DNA from: Bacteroidales bacterium
GTDB lineage: Bacteria; Bacteroidota; Bacteroidia; Bacteroidales; B18-G4
Direction of reading: 5' to 3'
Length of the DNA stretch: 56,497 nt
NCBI GenBank assembly: GCA_029942245.1
Contig: JAOZTN010000004.1
Location: forward strand, 1-56,497
The notes under the pieces: model-generated
The model's input: the letters and a program-made list of their open reading frames with translations, nothing else
Database searches by the model: none
What the model was told of the DNA's origin: nothing
In this document: positions 2,007 to 56,497 of the stretch, in pieces
How the letters are laid out: every line of letters begins with the position of its first letter
Position numbering within the stretch: the first letter of the stretch is position 1
Made by a program: the position numbers and the translations under genes

Positions 2007-3065
2007 TTATAGCGTTTGTTTGATTTTTATGGTCCGGCCGGTCTTATTGCTTTCAAATGCTTTCTCAATGATAAAGATAACATCTCTGGCTTGCCGGGGC
2101 AGCACTGCCTGTGGTTTGTTTTTGAACATTACTTCGTAAACATTGTCGTAGAAACCCATATAATTTCCCTGCTGCGTAGGTATCCGGATTGATTTCTGCG
2201 GTACTGCCTCTCCGGTGCCCAGGGTACCCCAATTTTTTTGATCATCTGCACCCCACTCATCCCCTCTGGGCATATTTCCTGCTTTTAAACAGGCCTCCTG
2301 CGGATCAAGGCCCCATTTGGAAAAACTTCCCTTGCTGCCATCTAAATTAAAGCGTGGACCTATATTTTTTATCATCATCCCCGCTGTGAGTACGGCAACC
2401 TTATCAGGATAATACAATTCAAGATTGAAATGGTCGTCGACCGGGCTTCCTGCTCTTTCAGATCTGAGGGTTGCTTTTATACTTTCCGGCAGCCCAAACA
2501 AACAAAGTGCCTGGTCGATAAGATGCGATCCCAGGTCAAACAATATACCGCCGCCGGGCAAAACATCATCCCTCCAGGCGCCGGGTTTCATATCCGGGCT
2601 GTACCTGTCGAAATGGGCTTCGTAATATTTGATATCCCCGAGTTTACCCTCCTCCAGGAGTTTTTTAATGGTCAGAAAATCACCATCCCACCTGCGGTTC
2701 TGATAAACGAAAATGTTTTTTCCTGTCCGCCTAGAAATATTGATCAATTCATCTGCTTCGCTGCTTGTCGGAACAAAGGGTTTTTCCACAACAACATGTT
2801 TGCCGGCCTCCAGGCATTCCCTTACCATGGAATAGTGAAATACATTCGGGGTGGCCACAACGATGAGGTCTATGGAATTATCTTTAAGGAGGTATTTATA
2901 ATCCTGAATTACATCTACATAGGGATAAATATCTTTAGATTGATAGTGATGACGTTCAACAATTACCGAAAGATAAAAACCGGGATGTGTATGAATAAAT
3001 GGTGCATGAAACGCCTTGCCCGACAAACCAAAACCTATAATACCGGTATGGATCGTATCGCTCAT
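2007..3065 (-). CDS. Gfo/Idh/MocA family oxidoreductase (no signal peptide)
   Basis: 352 aa with an N-terminal Rossmann motif (GIIGFGLSGKAFHAP) and a VVEKPF motif. Its start overlaps the upstream stop by 1 nt. Confidence 0.9.
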   Translation of the reverse strand: MSDTIHTGIIGFGLSGKAFHAPFIHTHPGFYLSVIVERHHYQSKDIYPYVDVIQDYKYLLKDNSIDLIVVATPNVFHYSMVRECLEAGKHVVVEKPFVPTSSEADELINISRRTGKNIFVYQNRRWDGDFLTIKKLLEEGKLGDIKYYEAHFDRYSPDMKPGAWRDDVLPGGGILFDLGSHLIDQALCLFGLPESIKATLRSERAGSPVDDHFNLELYYPDKVAVLTAGMMIKNIGPRFNLDGSKGSFSKWGLDPQEACLKAGNMPRGDEWGADDQKNWGTLGTGEAVPQKSIRIPTQQGNYMGFYDNVYEVMFKNKPQAVLPRQARDVIFIIEKAFESNKTGRTIKIKQTL

Positions 3066-3910
3066 TAAAGGTGGCTGTTAATAAAGTCGAAACTGCTTTT
3101 CACGCTTTCAAACCCATCACCCTTAATTATATCCTGCTCAACAAAAAATTCTTTAAGTCCGGCCGTGGCGGCATGATCGAAAATTGAAGGATAATCGATA
3201 ATCCCACTGCCCACTTCTATCATTTCCTTTCCTTCTCCTGCTGCCATATCCTTTACATGCCACAATTCAAATCTACCAGGATAGTTTTCAAAATACTGCA
3301 GCGGGTCTTTGCCTGCATAGTTGATCCAGTAAAGATCGATCTCCATGCAAACAAGTTTTGGGTCTGTCGATTCTAGCAGCAGATCATATGGGATTTTATC
3401 ATCAATAGGATAAAATTCGAAATCATGATTGTGATAACCGAACCTCAGCCCATTATCTTCACACATCTTCCCGATGGCATTGAATTTATCCGCCACCTCC
3501 TGATAGCTCTGTATACTTGCCCGCTGCTCATTGTTCAGCCATGGCCATATGATGTAATCAATCCCGACCTCCCGGTGAGCCTGCAATACCGCGGCTACAT
3601 CATCCTTATGGAAGGTAACATGGGATGCGGTCAACCTCATACCAAGGTCTTCAATAAGTGTTTTAAAATCAATTGGATCCATGCCATAGAATTTTCCATC
3701 ACTATAGCCTGCGGCTTCCAGATTTTTATATCCGATATCCGATATTTTTTTCAGGCTCCCTTCCAGGTCTTCTTTAATCTCGTTCCTCAGGCTGTACAAT
3801 TGCAGGCCAATCTTGTTTGAGGGAATCATATTGGCAAGGATATGCCTGGGTGTAAGCATTCCGGCAAGCATTCCGGCGCTGCTAATTTTGATGAAGTTCC
3901 TGCGTTTCAT
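3065..3910 (-). CDS. sugar phosphate isomerase/epimerase (xylose-isomerase-like TIM barrel), TAT-exported
   Basis: 281 aa with the TAT motif MKRRNFIKISSAGMLAG. The body resembles the AP-endonuclease-2/xylose-isomerase-like TIM-barrel family (WPW, HNHDFEF, HVKD patterns). Confidence 0.85.
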   Translation of the reverse strand: MKRRNFIKISSAGMLAGMLTPRHILANMIPSNKIGLQLYSLRNEIKEDLEGSLKKISDIGYKNLEAAGYSDGKFYGMDPIDFKTLIEDLGMRLTASHVTFHKDDVAAVLQAHREVGIDYIIWPWLNNEQRASIQSYQEVADKFNAIGKMCEDNGLRFGYHNHDFEFYPIDDKIPYDLLLESTDPKLVCMEIDLYWINYAGKDPLQYFENYPGRFELWHVKDMAAGEGKEMIEVGSGIIDYPSIFDHAATAGLKEFFVEQDIIKGDGFESVKSSFDFINSHL

Positions 3911-3964
3911 TGTTTTACTGTTTCATTGTTTCATTGTTTCACTGTTTCACTGTTTCATTGTTGA
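3911..3964 (-). repeat. tandem octamer array (TGTTTCAY on + strand; RTGAAACA on coding strand), about 6-7 units, filling the whole intergenic spacer
   Basis: Read directly: tgttttac tgtttcat tgtttcat tgtttcac tgtttcac tgtttcat tgttgat. The array runs from the stop of the 3965-5494 gene to the ATG of the 3065-3910 gene. That gene itself begins ATGAAACG. Confidence 0.9.
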
Positions 3965-5494
3965 TTAGACGATCTTTTCGTTTACGGGATCCCAGAAAAC
4001 CCTGCGATTTTCTTTGTATGCGATGGTACCCATATGCGCTGCCATGGCTTCTTCGAAACCCTGGTCTATATTACAGCTGGGCTGACCTCCGTTCCTGATA
4101 CAATTCAGCCACTCCTTGATGTGAATATGTGTGGGGTCAACTCTCTTTCCACCTCTGTATGTGTATAGCAGGCCTCTTCCGGCAAAATATTGTTCCGTTG
4201 GTGATGTAACAGCATCTACATTTTTCATTCCGGGCGACCATGTAAAGAGCGGAAGATCGGGGTCGATAATGCCATCGGCTATTTTTTGTTTGTAGCGGGT
4301 AGATCTTTTATCTGCCTTTATCAGCAGACCGTGTCCCAGCTCCATGGATGCATCATGTCCCATGATCACTCTTCCCCGTTTGCGACCGCTGGCCAGGGTA
4401 GCGCTGTAAACCATACTCAGGTCTCTGCCCGGATATTCATATACTGTATGAAGCACATCCGGTACTGTGCGCCCATCTTTGAAATAATAAATTCCCCCAC
4501 TTGAAACGGCTGACTCCGGAATGCCCAACCCAAGGATCTGGTTCATGGCATCAAATTCATGTGTGAGCAGATCGCCCGACAGGCCGGTGCTATAATCCCA
4601 CCAACACCGCCACCTGAAAAAACGTTCCAGGCTGAATTCATGTTCAGGGGCCGGTCCAATGAATTGTTTCCAGTCAATCGTATTTTTATTTGCATCTTCG
4701 TGTATAGGGTATACCCAGGCGCCATTGGGATCGTTTCTGTTCGTTGTAATCTCTATCAGGGTGATCTTGCCCAATAATCCTTTTTCAATTGCTTCACGGG
4801 CCTTGAAATAGCTTTCCGTTTGCCTTCCCTGGTGGCCCAGCTGGAATACGATATTGTTATTCCTAACAGCATCCCTGACCTCATACGTTTCTTCTACTGT
4901 CCAGGTCATAGGCTTCTCAACATATACGTGCTTTCCGGCATTGGCGGCAGCTATGGTCATAGGTCCGTGCCAGTGATCGGGGGTAGCAATGATCACCGCA
5001 TCGATATCATCAGCATTGATCAGGTCGAGGTAGCTCTTGTAACGCCTGGGCTGATTACCCATTTTCCCATTCGCACCCTCCCTGTTGATGTTGGAACCGG
5101 CTTCTTGTGCCATAGATCCGTATGTATCGAATACATCACACACACCATTAAGCAACACATTGAGGTCTTCCTGTTCAAGGTATTGCTGATACCTGTCGTC
5201 TGAAGGATTTTCAGAAGCATTTGCTATCCAATTGTCAATAAGACCCGGATGTGCAAAGCCGGCTGCTCTGGCCAGGTGCTTACCACGAATACCATACCCG
5301 ATCAGGCCCAGGCGTATCTGCTTGTCCATGGGGCCGGTTTTCGGAAGTTCCGGCGCGCTTGCCTTGAGCTTGATCTCATCGAGGATATTGCTCTTCAGGT
5401 ATTGATCATAATTACGCTTTTTATACCATGCAAACGCAAAGGCACCCAAAACAGGAACCGCAGCCAGGCCTTTTATCAGATCTCTTCTGTTCAT
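3965..5494 (-). CDS. Gfo/Idh/MocA family oxidoreductase, TAT signal/anchor
   Basis: 509 aa with MNRRDLIKGLAAVPVLGAFA, the Rossmann motif RLGLIGYGIRGKHL and the motif YVEKPM. Confidence 0.9.
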   Translation of the reverse strand: MNRRDLIKGLAAVPVLGAFAFAWYKKRNYDQYLKSNILDEIKLKASAPELPKTGPMDKQIRLGLIGYGIRGKHLARAAGFAHPGLIDNWIANASENPSDDRYQQYLEQEDLNVLLNGVCDVFDTYGSMAQEAGSNINREGANGKMGNQPRRYKSYLDLINADDIDAVIIATPDHWHGPMTIAAANAGKHVYVEKPMTWTVEETYEVRDAVRNNNIVFQLGHQGRQTESYFKAREAIEKGLLGKITLIEITTNRNDPNGAWVYPIHEDANKNTIDWKQFIGPAPEHEFSLERFFRWRCWWDYSTGLSGDLLTHEFDAMNQILGLGIPESAVSSGGIYYFKDGRTVPDVLHTVYEYPGRDLSMVYSATLASGRKRGRVIMGHDASMELGHGLLIKADKRSTRYKQKIADGIIDPDLPLFTWSPGMKNVDAVTSPTEQYFAGRGLLYTYRGGKRVDPTHIHIKEWLNCIRNGGQPSCNIDQGFEEAMAAHMGTIAYKENRRVFWDPVNEKIV

Positions 5495-13924: not shown

Positions 13925-15619
13925 TTATTTCAATCCTACAATAGCGGGGCCCTGTTTAAAGACGATGTCAACAGGGATGTTTGAACTGTTTAGTCTGTCA
14001 AGGTCAGCCTGCAGTACTGGGGGAACCATAGCGGCATCATCCACCCATTTTTTGGCTGCCTTGTAATCGCCATTCCCCTGGATGAAGAGTATTTTCTGCA
14101 TCAGGCTGATCATAGCATCATAAGTTTTGTCGAAATGAACAGTATAGGTTCCATTTTCGTGGCGGGTAAAGGAACCCTGCTCAGCGAAATAATTAAACCT
14201 CATCATATTGGCCTTGCCATGTGAGCTGGCAGCACCAAAACGACTCGAGCGGAAGATACCGGCAAAGAAAGTAACATAATTGTCCATCACCTCACCCTCG
14301 GTGAGTTCCCCCATTTCGTAAAGCCTGGTTACGAGGTAAAGGCCCATGATGTCGGCCTTTCCTTCTTCAATGGCGGAGTACTGTTCTTTCAATACCTCCC
14401 TTACGGTTCCGGTATTATCTATGGTGTTTTTAATTCCCATGGCATGGCCCACTTCGTGGAACATGGTATTTTCGAAGAAAGCAGTAAAGGTGACATATTT
14501 ACGCTGTTCCGGGTCGATCAGTATCTCAGCGATTGGCATGAGGATCTTGTCGAATTTGGCCTGCATGGAGTTTTTAAGTTGTAGCTTCCTTGATCCGTAT
14601 TTCATGTGTACCTCTTCGTCGTTGGGAAGGTTGATGGCGATGGTCTTGCTGGCGGCATTGCAATCACCGGCATAATAGATCACGTCATATGCATTCATAT
14701 CGGCTTTGCTTCCGGGCACGTCTTTTTTAAACTCATCATCCACCGGCAAGCCTTTCTGCAGCTCGGGGAGCATAGCAGAAAACTTTTCGAGTTTCTTACT
14801 CCATTCAATGTCTTTTAAAAGGATAAATGACTCATAGGCAGCCTTGTACCCGTAAAGCGCATCCTCGTAATTCTCGATGGCACCAACAACAAAATCAATC
14901 TTGGTATTTTGCATTTCCATCCAGGCGAAATCACTTGGCTGGTAGTTGTCGGTGATCAGAGCATCTGCCCTGAGTTCAAGATATTTCTTCAGGCCCGGGT
15001 CTTCGGCAAGCTCGGCAGCCTGTTTCAAAAGGTCTGAGGCCTTCAGGAGGTCCTTTGCATACGCCTCATGATACCAAACAGTCATCAATGAACCATTTCC
15101 ATCCCTGCGGATCAATGTATAGAGGTTAGTTTTATTAGGATCATCGAAGGCCTCGAACTCCTCATTCGTCATATCCGGGGGATAAAAGTTTGCACCTTTT
15201 GGCTTCTCCCCGACACCGTAAAACATAGGTTTGTTGTTGTTCAGCCTGTCCCACGGACCATAGTTGATCTTTACAAATCGTTTTACATTTTCATCCGTAA
15301 ACTTTTTGATGAATTTGGTTTTCGGGGAAATGGCTTGTTTCCAAAAAAGGCCGTCCATAATGCGGGCTACCTCGAAAAAGATCCCGACAATCTGCTTTTC
15401 ATTTTCTGACAGATGAGAAAGGTCGGCAGTAAGCTCAAACTGGGCGTAAATGTTGATACGCTCGTTTATGTAGTCTTTTGAGTCCTGATCGATGGTAATG
15501 ACTTCAGGAATGATAGTTTGTTTGTCAACGAATTTTTTGTCTGCCTTTTTCTGCTGGCAGGATACGGCAACTATGGCAAGTACAATAATTGCAGCGAATA
15601 AGGAAATTTTGGTTTTCAT
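13925..15619 (-). CDS. M49-like (dipeptidyl-peptidase III family) zinc metallopeptidase lipoprotein
   Basis: 564 aa with a signal and Cys (AIVAVSCQQ). Zinc motif FHEVGHAMG is followed about 30 aa later by EEGKAD, which resembles the second M49 motif. Confidence 0.65.
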   Translation of the reverse strand: MKTKISLFAAIIVLAIVAVSCQQKKADKKFVDKQTIIPEVITIDQDSKDYINERINIYAQFELTADLSHLSENEKQIVGIFFEVARIMDGLFWKQAISPKTKFIKKFTDENVKRFVKINYGPWDRLNNNKPMFYGVGEKPKGANFYPPDMTNEEFEAFDDPNKTNLYTLIRRDGNGSLMTVWYHEAYAKDLLKASDLLKQAAELAEDPGLKKYLELRADALITDNYQPSDFAWMEMQNTKIDFVVGAIENYEDALYGYKAAYESFILLKDIEWSKKLEKFSAMLPELQKGLPVDDEFKKDVPGSKADMNAYDVIYYAGDCNAASKTIAINLPNDEEVHMKYGSRKLQLKNSMQAKFDKILMPIAEILIDPEQRKYVTFTAFFENTMFHEVGHAMGIKNTIDNTGTVREVLKEQYSAIEEGKADIMGLYLVTRLYEMGELTEGEVMDNYVTFFAGIFRSSRFGAASSHGKANMMRFNYFAEQGSFTRHENGTYTVHFDKTYDAMISLMQKILFIQGNGDYKAAKKWVDDAAMVPPVLQADLDRLNSSNIPVDIVFKQGPAIVGLK

Positions 15620-44352: not shown

Positions 44353-44368
44353 AGTTTCACGTGGAACA
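44352..44368. repeat. 17-bp direct repeat copy 1 (TAGTTTCACGTGGAACA), near-palindrome centred on CACGTG
   Basis: Identical to 44480-44496. It starts at the first base of the methyltransferase ATG. Confidence 0.9.
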
Positions 44369-44385
44369 AAGGGTCAAAGATAAGA

Positions 44386-44420
44386 GATTATGGATTATTA
44401 ATTATGGATTATGGATGAGG
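44386..44420. repeat. degenerate heptamer array GATTATG GATTATT AATTATG GATTATG GATGAGG
   Basis: Read directly: 5 units, period 7. Confidence 0.85.
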
Positions 44421-44449
44421 AATCGAGAGGTATAGGTTGCCACCCAAAG

Positions 44450-44477
44450 CCTAATGCCTATCGCTCAATGCCTAACT
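44450..44477. repeat. degenerate heptamer array CCTAATG CCTATCG CTCAATG CCTAACT
   Basis: Read directly: 4 units, period 7. Confidence 0.8.
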
Positions 44478-44479
44478 TG

Positions 44480-44496
44480 TAGTTTCACGTGGAACA
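44480..44496. repeat. 17-bp direct repeat copy 2 (TAGTTTCACGTGGAACA)
   Basis: Identical to 44352-44368. It lies 8 nt after the mnmG stop codon. Confidence 0.9.
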
Positions 44497-44504
44497 TTAC
44501 TGGG

Positions 44505-50932: not shown

Positions 50933-52897
50933 ATGAAAAAACTGACCCTCTTATCTGCCATTTTACTAATTTCTGCTGTTGTATTTGGACAGTGGAACGA
51001 ATCTGAGGATGCCCATTTCGGCTGTAATCATGCCAAGGGACAACACCACAAAGGAGCTGATGCCATGTTTTATTTTCAGGAAGACCTGATGTGGGATTAT
51101 GATGTAACGTTTTACTTTCTCGACATAGAAGTTAGCCCAACCAGCATTGCTGTTGGCGGCAACGTCAGCATCCATGCGGAGGTGGTTTCCCCAAGTATGG
51201 ACACACTGGTCCTTGAATATACGGATGGTATGTTTGTTGATTCGGCCTTTGTTGACGGGATCATGGTAACGCCTTACCATACCAACAACCATATTTATAT
51301 GCTCCTGCCATCAACCCTGAACCAGGGAGATAATTTCGTTGCGCAGGTTTATTATCACGGTGTTCCACCCACCGGAGGCTTCTTTTCGGGTGTGTCAAAC
51401 GCGTATTCCAATTTCTGGGGCAAGCATGTAACGTGGACTCTTTCGGAGCCCTACGGTGCCCGCGATTGGTTTCCGGTAAAACAGGTATTGCCCGACAAGG
51501 CTGATTCCTGCTGGGTATTTCTTACTACAGACGCAGAATATACTGCTGGTTCACAGGGTATGCTTACTGCTGTTACCCCCATGCCCGACAACAAGCTCAG
51601 GTATGAATGGAAGTCGCAATACCCTATTGCGTATTACCTGATTTCTTTTGCAGTGGCTGATTATTTAGAGTATGATGTTTATGCACATCCGGAGGAGATG
51701 GGAACAGATTCTCTGCTTATCCAGAACTTTCTTTATGATCATCCCGACATGCTTAATGCCGTGAAGGATGATGTAGATGAAACCGTTAATTTTATTGAAC
51801 TCTTTTCCGATCTTTATATTCTCTATCCTTTCCATGAAGAAAAGTATGGCCATTGCCTTACACAGCTGGGAGGTGGTATGGAGCACCAGACCATGACCAC
51901 CATCGGTGGGTTTAACTATGACCTGGTATCTCACGAGCTCGGCCATATGTGGTTTGGCGACAACGTGACCTGTGCCACCTGGTCTGATATCTGGATCAAC
52001 GAAGGCTTTGCCTCTTATGGCGAATACCTCGCAAGAGAGCACCTGCTGAGCCAGTCATCAGCCAGTAGCTGGATGAATTCAACGCACTACAATGTGCTGT
52101 CACAGCCCGATGGAAGTGTATATGTTCCACCGGAAGAGCTGGACAATATCGGAAGGATATTCAACGGCAGGCTTTCTTATGACAAAGGGGCTTCCATCAT
52201 TCATATGATCCGCTTCGAACTTAATAACGACAGTATCTTTTTTGCCATCCTCGATGAGTTTCAGACTCAGTATACCGACAGCACGGCTACCGGTGATGAC
52301 TTTAAAGCCGTTGTTGAAGATCTGAGCGGTATGGATTTCACCGACTTCTTTAACCAATGGTATTATGGAGAGGGATACCCGATCTATAGCATCGTATGGA
52401 ACCAGACCCCTGAAGGGTTGAATATGAATGTTACCCAGACCACATCTTATCCTTCTGTTACGCCATTTTTTAAAATGCACATGGAGTACAGGATTCTAAC
52501 AACTGAAGTGGATACCATGATCAGGCTGTACCAGGATGCCAATTTTAATCAGTACACCATCCCCCTGCCGGGAGAAGTGGCTGCCATTATGATCGATCCC
52601 GATAACTGGGTACTGAATAAGATAGGTTCTGTTGTTGTAGGTGTAGAAGAGGATGAGAACCCGGTGTTCTTCACCTTCGGTCCTAACCCTGCCAGTGAAA
52701 GCATCAATCTTTTTATGGCTAATTCCTCGGATGAAGTTCAGATAAGCATACTGGATATCACAGGGAAGACCATGATAGAAACCCGCGAAACAGGCGGAAC
52801 CATCAAGATCAATACTTCCGACCTTCCCAAAGGCTCCTATCTGATAAGGTTGCAGAATGAGGATGCTGCCTTTACACGTAGGTTTGTGAAAATTTAG
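50933..52897 (+). CDS. M1 family zinc aminopeptidase with T9SS C-terminal sorting domain
   Basis: Motifs HELGHMWFG and WINEGFASY are present, with a signal peptide after the ATG at 50933 (MKKLTLLSAILLISAVVFG). C-terminus FGPNPASESINL...GSYLIRLQNEDAAFTRRFVKI. Confidence 0.9.
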   Translation: MKKLTLLSAILLISAVVFGQWNESEDAHFGCNHAKGQHHKGADAMFYFQEDLMWDYDVTFYFLDIEVSPTSIAVGGNVSIHAEVVSPSMDTLVLEYTDGMFVDSAFVDGIMVTPYHTNNHIYMLLPSTLNQGDNFVAQVYYHGVPPTGGFFSGVSNAYSNFWGKHVTWTLSEPYGARDWFPVKQVLPDKADSCWVFLTTDAEYTAGSQGMLTAVTPMPDNKLRYEWKSQYPIAYYLISFAVADYLEYDVYAHPEEMGTDSLLIQNFLYDHPDMLNAVKDDVDETVNFIELFSDLYILYPFHEEKYGHCLTQLGGGMEHQTMTTIGGFNYDLVSHELGHMWFGDNVTCATWSDIWINEGFASYGEYLAREHLLSQSSASSWMNSTHYNVLSQPDGSVYVPPEELDNIGRIFNGRLSYDKGASIIHMIRFELNNDSIFFAILDEFQTQYTDSTATGDDFKAVVEDLSGMDFTDFFNQWYYGEGYPIYSIVWNQTPEGLNMNVTQTTSYPSVTPFFKMHMEYRILTTEVDTMIRLYQDANFNQYTIPLPGEVAAIMIDPDNWVLNKIGSVVVGVEEDENPVFFTFGPNPASESINLFMANSSDEVQISILDITGKTMIETRETGGTIKINTSDLPKGSYLIRLQNEDAAFTRRFVKI

Positions 52898-52923
52898 GAA
52901 CCGGCATCAGGTAAAGGTTAAAA

Positions 52924-52978
52924 GGCATATGGCACATGGCATAAGTTTCCATGTTTCAAGTCTCGAGTCTTAAGTTTC
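52924..52978. repeat. run of degenerate heptamer arrays (GGCATAT GGCACAT GGCATAA ... CAAGTCT CGAGTCT TAAGTTT)
   Basis: Read directly: period 7 with one phase slip. Confidence 0.7.
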
Positions 52979-53005
52979 TATATAAATTCATTCCAACAGT
53001 ACTTC

Positions 53006-53026
53006 CCTGCACCCTGTACCTTGCAC
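53006..53026. repeat. degenerate heptamer array CCTGCAC CCTGTAC CTTGCAC
   Basis: Read directly: 3 units. Confidence 0.75.
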
Positions 53027-53034
53027 CTTTTATT

Positions 53035-53042
53035 TATCTTTG
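53035..53042 (+). promoter_or_regulatory. candidate -7 promoter box (TATCTTTG) for gltX
   Basis: Matches TAnnTTTG and lies 18 nt upstream of the ATG at 53061. Confidence 0.5.
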
Positions 53043-53060
53043 CCGGCATAAATATTTACT

Positions 53061-54590
53061 ATGACAAAAGAAATTCGTGTCCGTTTTGCACCCAGCCCAA
53101 CCGGCCCGCTACATATCGGGGGTGTAAGGACAGCCTTGTATAATTACCTTTTCGCAAAACACAATAAGGGGAAGATGATCCTCCGAATAGAGGATACCGA
53201 TCAAACCAGGTTTGTACCCGGGGCAGAAGACTATATTGTTGAGTCATTCAAATGGTGTGGCATTAAATTCGACGAGGGTGTAGATGTTGGCGGTGAATAT
53301 GGCCCCTACCGGCAATCGGAGAGAAAATCGATATACCTGGACTATGCTGACAGGCTGGTAAAAAGCGGCCATGCTTATTATGCTTTCGATACACCTGAAG
53401 AACTTGGGGGTATGCGCAAAGAACTTGAGGCTGCCGGTGCCAGGTATACCAGTTATAATGTCGAATCGCGGAAGAAAATGAGTAACTCATTGACCTTATC
53501 GAACGAAGAGGTCATGCGCAGGCTCTCTGTTGGCGAGGCATATGTGATTCGTTTCAAGATGCCGGAAAATGAAATGATCATCCTCCATGACGAGATCAGA
53601 AAAGATGTTGAAGTACATTCTTCTACACTGGACGATAAAGTGCTATATAAGTCCGACGGCATGCCCACCTATCATCTTGCGAACGTGGTAGATGACTACC
53701 TGATGAAGATCAGCCATGTAATTCGTGGGGAAGAGTGGTTACCATCATTGCCCTTGCATGTATTGCTGTATCGCCACCTGGGCTGGGAAGATGTCATGCC
53801 GAAATTTGCACATCTCCCCCTTCTTATGAAGCCTGACGGCAAAGGCAAACTGAGCAAGCGAGATGGAGACCGGATGGGATTCCCGGTATTTCCCCTGGAG
53901 TGGAAAGACCCCAAAAATGATGAGATTTCCCGTGGCTACAGGGAGGATGGTTATTTCCCGGATGCCTTTGTAAATATGCTGGCCCTGCTGGGCTGGAACC
54001 CCGGAACAGAACAGGAAATATTCGATATGGCAGGACTTGCCGAGCAGTTTAGCCTTGAGCGAGTGAATAAGTCGGGGGCGAGGTTTGATCCGGAGAAAGC
54101 AAAGTGGTTCAATCATCAATATCTCATAGAGAAGAGCGATGAAGAACTGGCAGAAGCTTTTGCTTCGATTGTAGAATCCAAAGGGTGCCAGATACCGGGT
54201 ACCGGGTACATGGAGAGAGTTGTTGGGCTGGTGAAGGAAAGGGTAAATTTTGTGCATGAGATCTGGGACCAGGCTTCTTTCTTTTTTGAAGCACCAACAT
54301 TTTATGATGAGAAGACGGTGAAGAAACGCTGGAAAGATAATACCGGGCAGTTGCTGACCGATGTATTAAGTATAATTAGGGCATCAGATCCTTTCGAAAG
54401 GGATGTCATCCACGACAAAGTAGCAGCCTATCTTGAAGAGAAAGAGATCGGTATGGGACAGGTGATGATCGGAATGCGCCTGTGTCTGGTTGGCAGTGGT
54501 ACGGGTCCTGACCTTTTTACCATCATGGAAATGATAGGGATTGAGGAGACGATTGCAAGGATTGAAAAGGGGATTCAAGAGCTCTCATAA
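53061..54590 (+). CDS. gltX: glutamate--tRNA ligase
   Basis: 509 aa with RFAPSPTGPLHIGGVRTALYNY (HIGH motif) and KLSKR (KMSKS motif). Confidence 0.97.
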   Translation: MTKEIRVRFAPSPTGPLHIGGVRTALYNYLFAKHNKGKMILRIEDTDQTRFVPGAEDYIVESFKWCGIKFDEGVDVGGEYGPYRQSERKSIYLDYADRLVKSGHAYYAFDTPEELGGMRKELEAAGARYTSYNVESRKKMSNSLTLSNEEVMRRLSVGEAYVIRFKMPENEMIILHDEIRKDVEVHSSTLDDKVLYKSDGMPTYHLANVVDDYLMKISHVIRGEEWLPSLPLHVLLYRHLGWEDVMPKFAHLPLLMKPDGKGKLSKRDGDRMGFPVFPLEWKDPKNDEISRGYREDGYFPDAFVNMLALLGWNPGTEQEIFDMAGLAEQFSLERVNKSGARFDPEKAKWFNHQYLIEKSDEELAEAFASIVESKGCQIPGTGYMERVVGLVKERVNFVHEIWDQASFFFEAPTFYDEKTVKKRWKDNTGQLLTDVLSIIRASDPFERDVIHDKVAAYLEEKEIGMGQVMIGMRLCLVGSGTGPDLFTIMEMIGIEETIARIEKGIQELS

Positions 54591-55317: not shown

Positions 55318-55671
55318 ATGTCAACGATATCGATAGAACAAATGGAGTTTTATGCCTACCATGGCTGCTTTAAGGAAGAGCAGATCATAGGCACCCGATT
55401 TCTTGTTGATCTTTACCTTGAAACCAATACGGGTAAAGCAGAAAGAACAGACGACCTGATTGACACAGTGAACTATCAGGAAGTTTATTTGTTAGTGAAG
55501 ACAGAAATGGAGATCAAGTCAAAATTACTTGAACATGTAGGAAGGCGGATACTTGATGCAGTAAGAGGAAAATACCCCCAGATTGCATCTGCTGAATTAA
55601 AGATTTCCAAGATGAATCCACCCCTGGGTGGGAAAATGAAAAATGTAAGCCTTACAATGCGCGCAGAATGA
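55318..55671 (+). CDS. folB: dihydroneopterin aldolase
   Basis: 117 aa, FolB-like (FYAYHGCFKEEQIIGTRFLVDL...VNYQEVY...KMNPP). Confidence 0.9.
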   Translation: MSTISIEQMEFYAYHGCFKEEQIIGTRFLVDLYLETNTGKAERTDDLIDTVNYQEVYLLVKTEMEIKSKLLEHVGRRILDAVRGKYPQIASAELKISKMNPPLGGKMKNVSLTMRAE

Positions 55672-55865
55672 AACGTGAAGACAGAAAATACAAGGTAAAA
55701 GAGATTAGTTGTCAGTGTGGCCATAGCTTTGAATGCCTGAGCCCCGATTCCTGCCTTTGCAGCGGCAATGTGGAGCTAAAACGTTCCGGAGTGGATGTTT
55801 CAAAGCTCAAGAGCCCCTGCCTTTGTCCCGAGTGCCTCAAGGTTGCTACGGGGAATGTAAAGTAG
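55668..55865 (+). CDS. cysteine-rich CWC-family small protein
   Basis: 65 aa with 8 Cys in CQCGHSFEC, CLCSG and CLCPEC patterns. It has an ATGA overlap with folB. Confidence 0.6.
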   Translation: MKREDRKYKVKEISCQCGHSFECLSPDSCLCSGNVELKRSGVDVSKLKSPCLCPECLKVATGNVK

Positions 55866-55872
55866 TTTTCCT

Positions 55873-55900
55873 GGTTACTGGTCACTGGCTTCTGGTTACT
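55873..55900. repeat. left arm of 28-bp inverted repeat, itself a heptamer array (GGTTACT GGTCACT GGCTTCT GGTTACT)
   Basis: It is complementary to 56342-56369 at 26 of 28 positions and overlaps the stop codon of the four-helix-bundle gene. Confidence 0.9.
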
Positions 55901-56273
55901 TGTTTAAGCTTCTCTCCAATGTTTGAATAAATACATTCAGTTTTTCCCCCAGCAAAACGACAATCTCTTTGATCTCCTTATAGTTTTTTTGATCTCTAAG
56001 TGAACCCGTCAGGTATAAGGTTTCTAGGTGGTCAAGGGTTTCGTCATTCGAAGCCTGAGCATAAATGAGGAAATGCAAATATTCCTTAACATACCTTCTT
56101 CGTCCATACCCTTCAACAATATTGGATTTAACAGATTTCGAAGACCTGCGAATCTGGGAAGCAGTTTCGTAACGCTCAAAATCAGGCAGGCCCATAGTCA
56201 TTTTATGAATTGCCAAAACTGATTTCAGTGACAACTCCCAGATATGTAGTTTTTTGTAACTCAATTTATACAA
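55896..56273 (-). CDS. four-helix-bundle protein (23S rRNA intervening-sequence protein family, TIGR02436-like)
   Basis: 125 aa. [54 protein letters not shown] is the typical signature of this family. Confidence 0.85.
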
Positions 56274-56341
56274 TCCTTTGTTTACATATTAATACCCAAA
56301 AAGTAAAAATGTCCCACAAGAATTTTCAAATATTTGTAACC

Positions 56342-56369
56342 AGCAACCAGAAGCCAGTGACCAGCAACC
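56342..56369. repeat. right arm of 28-bp inverted repeat (AGCAACC AGAAGCC AGTGACC AGCAACC)
   Basis: Reverse complement of 55873-55900 with 2 differences. Both differences become G-U pairs in the minus-strand (gene-sense) RNA. Confidence 0.9.
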
Positions 56370-56398: not shown

Positions 56399-56430
56399 TT
56401 TGTGTTGAAATATCAAAAGCACTATCTTTG
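56399..56430 (+). promoter_or_regulatory. candidate Bacteroidota promoter for tRNA-Cys (TTTG - 20 nt - TATCTTTG)
   Basis: The -33-like TTTG is at 56399-56402 and TAnnTTTG at 56423-56430. The tRNA starts 13 nt downstream. Confidence 0.55.
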
Positions 56431-56442
56431 CCTCGCAAACCT

Positions 56443-56497
56443 GGTCTCGTGGCCGAGCGGCTAGGCAGGGGTCTGCAAAACCTCGTACAGCGGTTCG
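56443..56497 (+). tRNA. tRNA-Cys (GCA), 3' end cut by window edge
   Basis: Hand-folded. The acceptor is GGTCTCG and the D-arm is GCC-GAGCGGCTA-GGC. The anticodon stem GGGGT/ACCTC carries the loop CTGCAAA. A short variable region is followed by the start of the T-arm (AGCGG TTCG...). Confidence 0.75.

Follow-up and report, generated by a model that had tools for sequence, protein, structure and literature searches.

Why should a small gene of the 23S rRNA intervening-sequence (IVS) protein family lie outside any rRNA gene, enclosed by an inverted repeat that is itself built of tandem heptamers? The question is raised by a 56,497-nt stretch of DNA from a Bacteroidales bacterium (the entire contig JAOZTN010000004.1 of assembly GCA_029942245.1; the whole stretch is hereafter the window), near one end of which such a gene lies on the minus strand between folB and a tRNA-Cys gene. 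An initial annotation had proposed either a mobile or once-mobile IVS-like cassette or a gene whose expression is controlled by RNase III. The first proposal gains support from our comparison of the locus with its homologues, through both the arrays that flank genes of this family and the turnover of the site in relatives. We consider it probable, if well short of certain, that the window locus is one copy of a widespread, mobile cassette of the IVS type, consisting of a CTGGNTN array, a motif, a PF05635 gene, and an inverted array. The conserved cis element is shown to be a pair of convergent arrays rather than a unique 28-bp repeat, and the cassette is shown to be gained, lost, replaced, and flipped between folB and tRNA-Cys in close relatives.

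The inverted repeat and the gene it encloses

The window copy is made up of the following parts.

55872–55904: left arm, at the gene's 3' end; roughly 4.7 degenerate heptamers (GGTTACT, GGTCACT, GGCTTCT, GGTTACT, TGTT)
55896–56264, minus strand: PF05635/TIGR02436 four-helix-bundle (4HB) gene; 122 aa from TTG at 56264 (MSYKK...)
56288–56313, minus strand: cassette-specific, promoter-like motif GACATTTTTACTTTTTGGGTATTAAT (GGGACA ... TGGTATTAAT), between the 5' arm and the start codon
56338–56370: right arm, upstream (5') of the gene; on the sense strand GGTTGCT, GGTCACT, GGCTTCT, GGTTGCT, GGTT, i.e., (CTGGNTN)n

A repeat search placed the two arms (33 nt each, slightly longer than the 28 nt originally claimed) 433 nt apart with 91% complementarity, making this the top-scoring inverted repeat of the 56.5-kb window for arms no more than 1 kb apart; the runners-up reached 71–83%. 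Alignment of the upstream against the downstream flank gave a Smith-Waterman score of 52, compared to a maximum of 23 for shuffled flanks. That the arms are degenerate 7-bp arrays, as had been read from the letters, was borne out by Tandem Repeats Finder (TRF), which assigned the right arm a period of 7 with 4.7 copies and 73% matches. The left arm falls within a period-7 segment at 55867–55904 and reads (NNNCCAG)n on the sense strand of the gene. It spans the gene's stop codon (55896–55898) and begins 7 nt past the stop of the neighbouring Cys-rich open reading frame (ORF). Direct repeats beside the arms, looked for as target-site duplications at the window cassette and in its relatives, were not found.

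Both mismatches in the 28-nt core are of the A/G type, giving A·C in a plus-strand RNA and G·U in a minus-strand RNA; for the window copy, this part of the original description is correct as read from the letters. Folding of the minus-strand RNA yielded the uninterrupted terminal helix that had been anticipated, at more than 33 bp (z −4.5); the plus-strand RNA also folds into a long terminal helix (z −5.7).

Assignment of the enclosed gene to the 23S-IVS-protein family was confirmed by matches above the curated cutoffs of both PF05635 (E 1.6e-23; 83.4 bits, cutoff 33.8) and TIGR02436 (E 1.7e-25; 89.4 bits, cutoff 24). Alignment with homologues places the start at the second TTG (56264) rather than at the first start given by the ORF finder (56273). 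The AlphaFold model of the protein (pLDDT 95.2) contains four long helices, and Foldseek matched it to PDB entries 2GSC (TM 0.89) and 2RLD (TM 0.79), each deposited with five chains (A–E), as well as to Avd, a protein of diversity-generating retroelements (DGRs), both alone (4DWL; TM 0.76) and within the reverse transcriptase–RNA complex 8UB8. From this model, we are confident that the window protein would adopt an up-down four-helix bundle like those of 2GSC and 2RLD. As a query, it alone retrieved more than 5,800 relatives.

A polar, two-sided array layout across homologous loci

For the family at large, we sampled 80 fetched loci encoding relatives 52–75% identical to the window protein, 69 of which were usable for a flank inverted-repeat test, 75 for period-7 coverage, and 56 for a count of mismatches between arms. 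Represented among these loci are Bacteroidota, Ignavibacteriota, Neomarinimicrobiota, Desulfobacterota, Verrucomicrobiota/Kiritimatiellia, Calditrichia, and others. In almost all 80, runs such as CTGGATACTGGATGCTGG precede the gene and their reverse complement follows it, and the flank-to-flank inverted repeat beats every shuffled control in 56 of 69. The expectation that other copies of the family would also be bracketed by inverted heptamer arrays was thus upheld, but the further idea that each pair of arms is specific to its copy was not, as detailed below for the CTGGATN loci.

Enrichment of period 7 is confined to the immediate surroundings of the gene. Upstream coverage is 25% within 0–50 nt, 45% at 50–100 nt, and 16% at 100–150 nt, with corresponding downstream values of 35%, 22%, and 11%; at 300–1400 nt, it does not exceed 1.6%, and periods 5, 6, 8, and 9 are essentially nil. 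The unit consensus is C-T-G-G-(A/T/G)-T-(A/G/T), in a median of 5 copies. Upstream of the gene, 284 CTNGNTN units lie on the sense strand versus 10 on the antisense strand, while downstream the counts are 0 and 241, against a background of 38 units per 239 kb. The polarity (CTNGNTN)n, gene, (NANCNAG)n is thus almost invariant.

The layout extends to more distant homologues with other units. Of six copies on cyanobacterial plasmids (33–47% identical to the window protein), four (Nostoc punctiforme, Calothrix, N. edaphicum, and Stanieria) are flanked on each side by inverted arrays in the same arrangement, though their units (GGGTGTR, AGGGAAC, GGCAGRA) are quite unlike CTGGNTN.

Individual plasmid copies have features of their own. 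On plasmid gamma of Nostoc sp. PCC 7120 (15088–15438), the gene has a downstream array (CTTCTGC/CCTCTGC) and no clear upstream array; an ISL3 transposase gene lies immediately upstream, and the upstream arm may have been disrupted. The annotated 4HB protein of N. punctiforme pNPUN01 (159762–160184; 140 aa) carries a Gly/Val-rich C-terminal extension that is absent from its 81% identical Calothrix relative (125 aa); the ORF as annotated may extend into sequence derived from repeats. On Pseudanabaena galeata plasmid pPg_01 (46268–46627), the 4HB gene is located between cas6 and cas4.

Gain, loss, replacement, and inversion at one site

The insertion site in the window is delimited by two genes.

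55668–55865, plus strand: Cys-rich ORF, left boundary; 65 aa, overlapping the folB stop (ATGA)
56443–56497, plus strand: tRNA-Cys(GCA), right boundary; Rfam tRNA match, 3' end cut by the contig end

The tRNA-Cys reported beside the cassette is therefore real but truncated at the window end; an intact tRNA-Cys(GCA) is present at the matching site of L082, a near-identical contig. A TAtcTTTG box of the Bacteroidetes type, read from the sequence, precedes it at about 56425–56432. The Cys-rich ORF has no Pfam or NCBIfam match, is kept in near relatives only, and marks one edge of the hot spot.

A metagenome scan with FolB returned 80 related loci, in which FolB, the Cys-rich ORF, 4HB genes, and tRNAs were mapped. 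Distant relatives (FolB about 60–66% identical) often have folB followed directly by tRNA-Cys, without arrays. Among near relatives, i.e., those with the Cys-rich ORF, the interval may hold a minus-strand 4HB gene of either of two protein clades, a partly deleted plus-strand copy (L093 and L094), or a GIY-YIG gene (2986–3342 in L086; PF01541, E 5.8e-15). In L088, the interval consists of arrays only: gene and motif are absent, and the junction between a short (CTGGATN) array and the long (NATCCAG) array directly next to it folds as a hairpin (z −3.4 and −4.9). Over 1167 nt of flank, this empty site matches the filled site of L089 at 99.1% identity; the k-mers of the L088 junction are not found in L089, which makes simple assembly collapse unlikely. 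Replacement is seen on comparing L083 with L082, the near-twin of the window: folB and the Cys-rich ORF are 94% identical and the tRNA 100%, but no DNA homology can be detected over the cassette, and the proteins are only 58–62% identical. The check for presence or absence in relatives, which the initial annotation had called for, thus uncovered filled, empty, replaced, and flipped states.

The arrays themselves also vary in copy number and unit order, between L088 and L089 as well as among relatives more generally. CTGGTTN-type units are mixed into, or lie outside, the CTGGATN arrays of L083 and L168, which suggests array replacement or recombination. A second cassette is present upstream of folB in L087 and L093.

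Unit type follows the protein

Across loci, the nearest protein neighbour of a given copy falls in the same unit class in 49 of 56 cases (permutation p 0.0005). Host kinship could explain this figure; however, two sets of cases argue otherwise. At the folB hot spot, within a single host lineage, the CTGGTTN cassettes (the window, L002, L085, L092, L095, L003, and L004) encode proteins that are mutually 64–85% identical, while the CTGGATN cassettes (L083, L089, L091, and L168) encode a second protein clade, 69–82% identical internally and 56–68% identical to the first; a third array type, upstream of folB, accompanies a third protein clade. In Cyanobacteria, the 79% identical proteins of Nostoc 7120 and Stanieria have one common unit, as do the 81% identical proteins of N. 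punctiforme and Calothrix, whereas three Nostoc proteins only 45–53% identical to one another have three different units. We argue from these cases that unit type tracks the protein and not the host.

From the G·U mismatches, the initial annotation had concluded that the sense transcript could form an uninterrupted helix. The argument is true of the window copy but not of the family: the 56 loci used for the mismatch count contain 76 sense G·U and 82 antisense G·U mismatches (p 0.69), along with 184 transversions. Selection on a sense-strand RNA helix was rejected on the basis of these unbiased counts. At CTGGATN loci, the true partner arm pairs no better than same-class arms from elsewhere, with ranks uniformly distributed; at CTGGTTN loci, partner ranks are mixed, with the window arms, which carry the unusual units GTCACTG and GCTTCTG in mirror-image order, ranking first of six and other loci being unremarkable. 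Copy-specific complementarity as a family property was likewise discarded. Given that no strand bias was detected and that arms are mostly not copy-specific, the constraint is on period, unit family, and convergent polarity, and not on one particular helix.

A promoter-like motif between the 5' arm and the gene

By alignment, the motif of the window's clade has the consensus GGGGACATTTT-N10-GGTATTAATA. The pattern GACATTT-N8-13-TATTAAT matches once in the window (0.01 expected) and, wherever it occurs in the fetched loci, lies immediately 5' of a 4HB gene. Judging from its letters, the motif resembles a −35 element combined with an extended −10 promoter; a generic host promoter was dismissed, given that the motif is confined to cassettes. 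Were it a promoter, the gene's own mRNA would lack the 5' arm. Elsewhere in the family, arrays extend to within 0–9 nt of the start codon (L005, L018, L020, L027, L043, L046, and L049), meaning that the array is transcribed there.

A variant of the cassette motif precedes GIY-YIG genes. The one in the folB-to-tRNA-Cys interval of L086 is preceded by GGGAC...GGTATTAAT, the motif common to 4HB cassettes, and a second GIY-YIG copy with the motif is located elsewhere in L093 and L094 (at about 60–370), where clear heptamer arrays were not seen.

Gene-less arrays and other repeats in the window

TRF and a period-7 scan identified two further heptamer loci in the window.

44376–44477: gene-less array pair, (GATTATG)n ... 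(CCTAATG)n; period-7 segment 44376–44428
52912–53033: gene-less intergenic block of three arrays (GGCAYAT, AGTYTCN, CCYTGYA); period-7 segments 52912–52941, 52947–52977, and 53002–53033

These had been put forward as possible footprints of the same element class. The arrays are real and share the G-strand-to-C-strand polarity of the cassette; however, their units are unlike those of the cassette and their halves do not pair (fold z ~0), such that the claim of relatedness at the level of units fell away. At the 44.4-kb site, the left array is kept in L168 and the right one differs, while L169 is without arrays. At the 52.9-kb site, L168 (marker protein 81% identical) has (GTTRGGC)6 and (ATCCAGY)12 instead, the latter a gene-less array only 3 kb from a cassette of like unit type. 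The window's gene-less arrays are labile members of a general heptamer-array phenomenon. Given that the empty site in L088 keeps both arrays, and given the gene-less (ATCCAGY)12 array of L168, it is plausible by analogy that they may represent cassette footprints.

Several other repeats were noted. In L169, whose DUF4175-family marker protein is 77% identical to that of the window, the peptidase/gltX intergenic region (4033–4149, equivalent to window 52897–53061) has a GC-rich palindrome, CCTCACCCCCT...AGGGGGTGAGG, in place of the arrays. A near-palindromic box, TAGTTTCACGTGGAACA, occurs twice around the 44.4-kb arrays (44355–44371 and 44481–44497). This 17-bp direct repeat was considered as a target-site duplication and rejected, as both boxes are kept in L168, L169, and L170 whether or not arrays are present; the boxes are probably a paired regulator site. 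A period-8 array, (GTTTCAYT) x7, lies at 3904–3962 between two minus-strand ORFs and extends into the ATG of the ORF at 3065..3910.

Relation to known systems

The closest counterparts of the cassette are the ORF-containing 23S IVSs of Leptospira and Coxiella, in which a PF05635 ORF likewise lies inside terminal inverted repeats with a stem of roughly 28 bp. In Coxiella, the terminal stem of the IVS measures 28 bp, and the 5' end carries GACAGAT heptamers, three or four of them depending on the strain, the first of which is where RNase III cuts; the authors of that study regard the element as selfish (PMC4990558). Unlike these IVSs, the window cassette is not in an rRNA helix but is intergenic, with folB, a small ORF, and tRNA-Cys as neighbours; it has its own promoter-like motif, and excision by RNase III is known from rRNA IVSs only. 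Moreover, an Rfam scan of the window found no family at its gathering score and no rRNA, such that the arms and cassette were not assignable to a known RNA family.

Heptamer arrays have a literature of their own, having been described in Beggiatoaceae, Cyanobacteria, and Bacteroidetes as the TAACTGA class (PMC4679880) and, in Xanthomonas and Nostoc, as G-quadruplex-forming repeats (PMC4692102). Arrays of the TAACTGA and GGGAATC types, as well as those of the short tandemly repeated repetitive (STRR) type, resemble the cassette arms in being intergenic 7-mers of variable copy number, often with about 4 units, and often in convergent pairs with the G-rich strand inward (70 of 186 arrays in Xanthomonas campestris; PMC4692102). 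Those near start codons in Beggiatoaceae and Nostoc have been proposed as binding sites for some factor, in Nostoc for an "as yet unidentified interacting partner." The arrays have been read in these papers as regulatory or G-quadruplex elements and not tied to a PF05635 cassette. In the supplement of one of them, a 4-unit GGGAATC array overlaps the start codon of XCC0516 (PMC4692102), which is the PF05635 protein of 2GSC, the top structural match of the window protein. Neither PMC4679880 nor PMC4692102 mentions S23, and a full-text literature search found no link of heptamer arrays to non-rRNA PF05635 genes; the association thus appears to be previously unreported.

Avd, the DGR accessory protein, shares its fold and superfamily with the window protein, both being small basic four-helix bundles (TM 0.76, identity about 12%). 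A DGR context was dismissed: the neighbouring genes called in the window, L001, and L168 include no reverse transcriptase, and no long direct (template/variable) repeats surround the window gene. Anti-phage defence and phage origin were set aside as well, since the window cassette matched neither PADLOC defence models nor PHROG phage models and IMG/VR viral contigs gave one weak match only.

With MITEs (miniature transposable elements bounded by inverted repeats) and small insertion sequences (ISs), the cassette has in common a short unit within inverted repeats, presence/absence variation, and occurrence in many genomic contexts. It differs in having neither transposase nor target-site duplication, its sole ORF being the 4HB gene, and in that its ends are short tandem units that stay behind at the empty site; such persisting ends recall the Foldback elements of eukaryotes. 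Free-standing GIY-YIG homing-endonuclease genes are comparable as small selfish ORFs in intergenic sites, sharing the hot spot in L086, and both families have been found in rRNA insertions of candidate phyla radiation bacteria; in contrast to GIY-YIG enzymes, the PF05635 protein has no recognised nuclease motif.

A proposed mechanism

Arrays persist where the gene is absent, and unit type changes with protein clade. In our proposed mechanism, the arrays would be the functional ends of the cassette and the substrates for its gain, loss, exchange, and inversion. Exchange would probably proceed by recombination within arrays, which would explain the kept arrays, the variable copy number, the lack of target duplications, and the flipped copies. 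Recognition of the arrays probably falls to the Avd-like protein that the cassette encodes; this protein is likely a pentamer and, we infer, binds nucleic acid. Because the arrays are inverted, the ends of any transcript crossing the whole cassette would fold into a long duplex, a candidate substrate for RNase III like the stems that the enzyme takes out of ORF-carrying 23S IVSs. Such a duplex may serve to make the insert tolerable in transcribed DNA, rather than to control expression of the cassette's own gene, and rRNA IVSs would represent a like cassette that landed in an rRNA helix.

A stronger form of the proposal, which we advance only tentatively, holds that PF05635 proteins are specific partners of heptamer arrays, with clade-matched 7-mers, and that gene and convergent arrays together make up a foldback-like mobile cassette, complete in itself, that seeds arrays and becomes an IVS when in rRNA.

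Several observations weigh against the cassette as we describe it. The inverted repeat is not detectable in 13 of 69 loci, and the arrays of the P. galeata copy are direct and not inverted, with (AAAGCTA) about 15x upstream and (AAAGCCA) about 10x downstream. Heptamer arrays also occur without a PF05635 gene nearby. Gain and loss were seen in metagenome contigs, where repeats can misassemble, and no transposase, recombinase, or target-site duplication was found at the cassette. Array positions in Xanthomonas are conserved between species, with local stability raised (PMC4692102), which would fit resident better than active mobile elements. Finally, the co-variation of clade and unit could arise from common descent of gene and arrays, and not from recognition.

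Alternative explanations

That RNase III controls expression of the gene, the other proposal of the initial annotation, would require its mRNA to carry both arms, with the leader pairing with the stop region and cleavage setting stability or translation. Three observations are compatible with this: the sense RNA of the window copy forms an unbroken helix longer than 33 bp in which both mismatches are G·U, the equivalent stem of the Coxiella IVS is cleaved by RNase III (PMC4990558), and the 5' array abuts the start codon in some homologues and so is transcribed. The family data point the other way: sense and antisense G·U are balanced, over half of all mismatches are transversions, arms are not copy-specific in CTGGATN, the largest class, and the plus strand folds equally well. 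In addition, the promoter-like motif lies inside the 5' arm, such that the transcript may begin downstream of it. Possible for the window copy and disfavoured by the family, this explanation is unlikely overall, and less likely than the cassette reading. PF05635 proteins could alternatively be genome-wide regulators that bind heptamer arrays, with the flanking arrays serving as autoregulatory operators. Such a role would suit the co-variation of protein clade and unit type independently of host, the fold shared with the RNA-binding scaffold Avd, the proposal of start-codon arrays as factor-binding sites in Beggiatoaceae and Nostoc, and the gene-less (ATCCAGY)12 array near a like-type cassette in L168. 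By itself, however, it leaves unexplained both the rapid gain, loss, replacement, and flipping at a single site and the convergent pairing around the gene, and the other arrays of the window have units unlike those of the cassette; we therefore find it doubtful, though worth keeping in view.

Two further explanations assign the protein no part in the arrays. The arms could be a host insulator or terminator, in which convergent arrays stop or process transcription (e.g., to shield the tRNA-Cys promoter) and the gene is mere cargo. The left arm does begin 7 nt past the upstream ORF stop, with no other terminator predicted there, and the empty site of L088 folds as a hairpin. With the gene present, though, the arms are 433 nt apart and form no local terminator hairpin; moreover, distant relatives have folB directly before tRNA-Cys without arrays, and the window's gene-less arrays do not fold, making this account very unlikely. 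Still more improbable is coincidence, i.e., that slippage-prone or G-quadruplex repeats simply fill the intergenic DNA where small dispensable genes sit. Gene-less arrays and convergent pairs are indeed common (two sites in the window; 70 of 186 arrays in Xanthomonas), and arrays are labile between relatives. Chance of this kind would not be expected to produce an enrichment that is gene-centred, two-sided, and of fixed polarity across many phyla with different units, that drops to 1.6% or less at 300–1400 nt in the same loci, and in which unit type tracks protein clade within one host lineage.

Among more specific roles for the arrays, Rho-utilisation sites (for the C-rich outgoing arrays) were dropped since cyanobacteria are not known to possess Rho. 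Chi-like sites were rejected because, although GCTGGTT resembles the Chi of Escherichia coli, the units are too variable between clades. G-quadruplexes are plausible for GGG-type units but a weak proposition for units of the GG type, as here; conservation of C and T positions within the unit speaks instead for sequence-specific recognition.

Significance

For thirty years, ORF-carrying rRNA IVSs have been described as possibly mobile, with no mechanism offered. PF05635 is itself a very large family with solved structures whose function outside DGRs is not established. Our analysis suggests a gene cassette, for the most part undescribed, that is related to these rRNA-gene inserts and that present annotation pipelines break up into a "four helix bundle protein" and repeats left without annotation. 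The finding thereby joins two poorly understood features of bacterial genomes and is broader than the window copy alone. If PF05635 proteins are indeed the partners of heptamer arrays, three orphan phenomena would be brought together, namely the 23S IVS ORF (dating to 1993), STRR-type heptamer repeats (1990), and Avd-like proteins outside DGRs. A tight, polar, cross-phylum association of gene and arrays would account for an ORF family that lives in rRNA helices, and it makes the predicted binding of each protein to its own array a concrete and inexpensive thing to assay.

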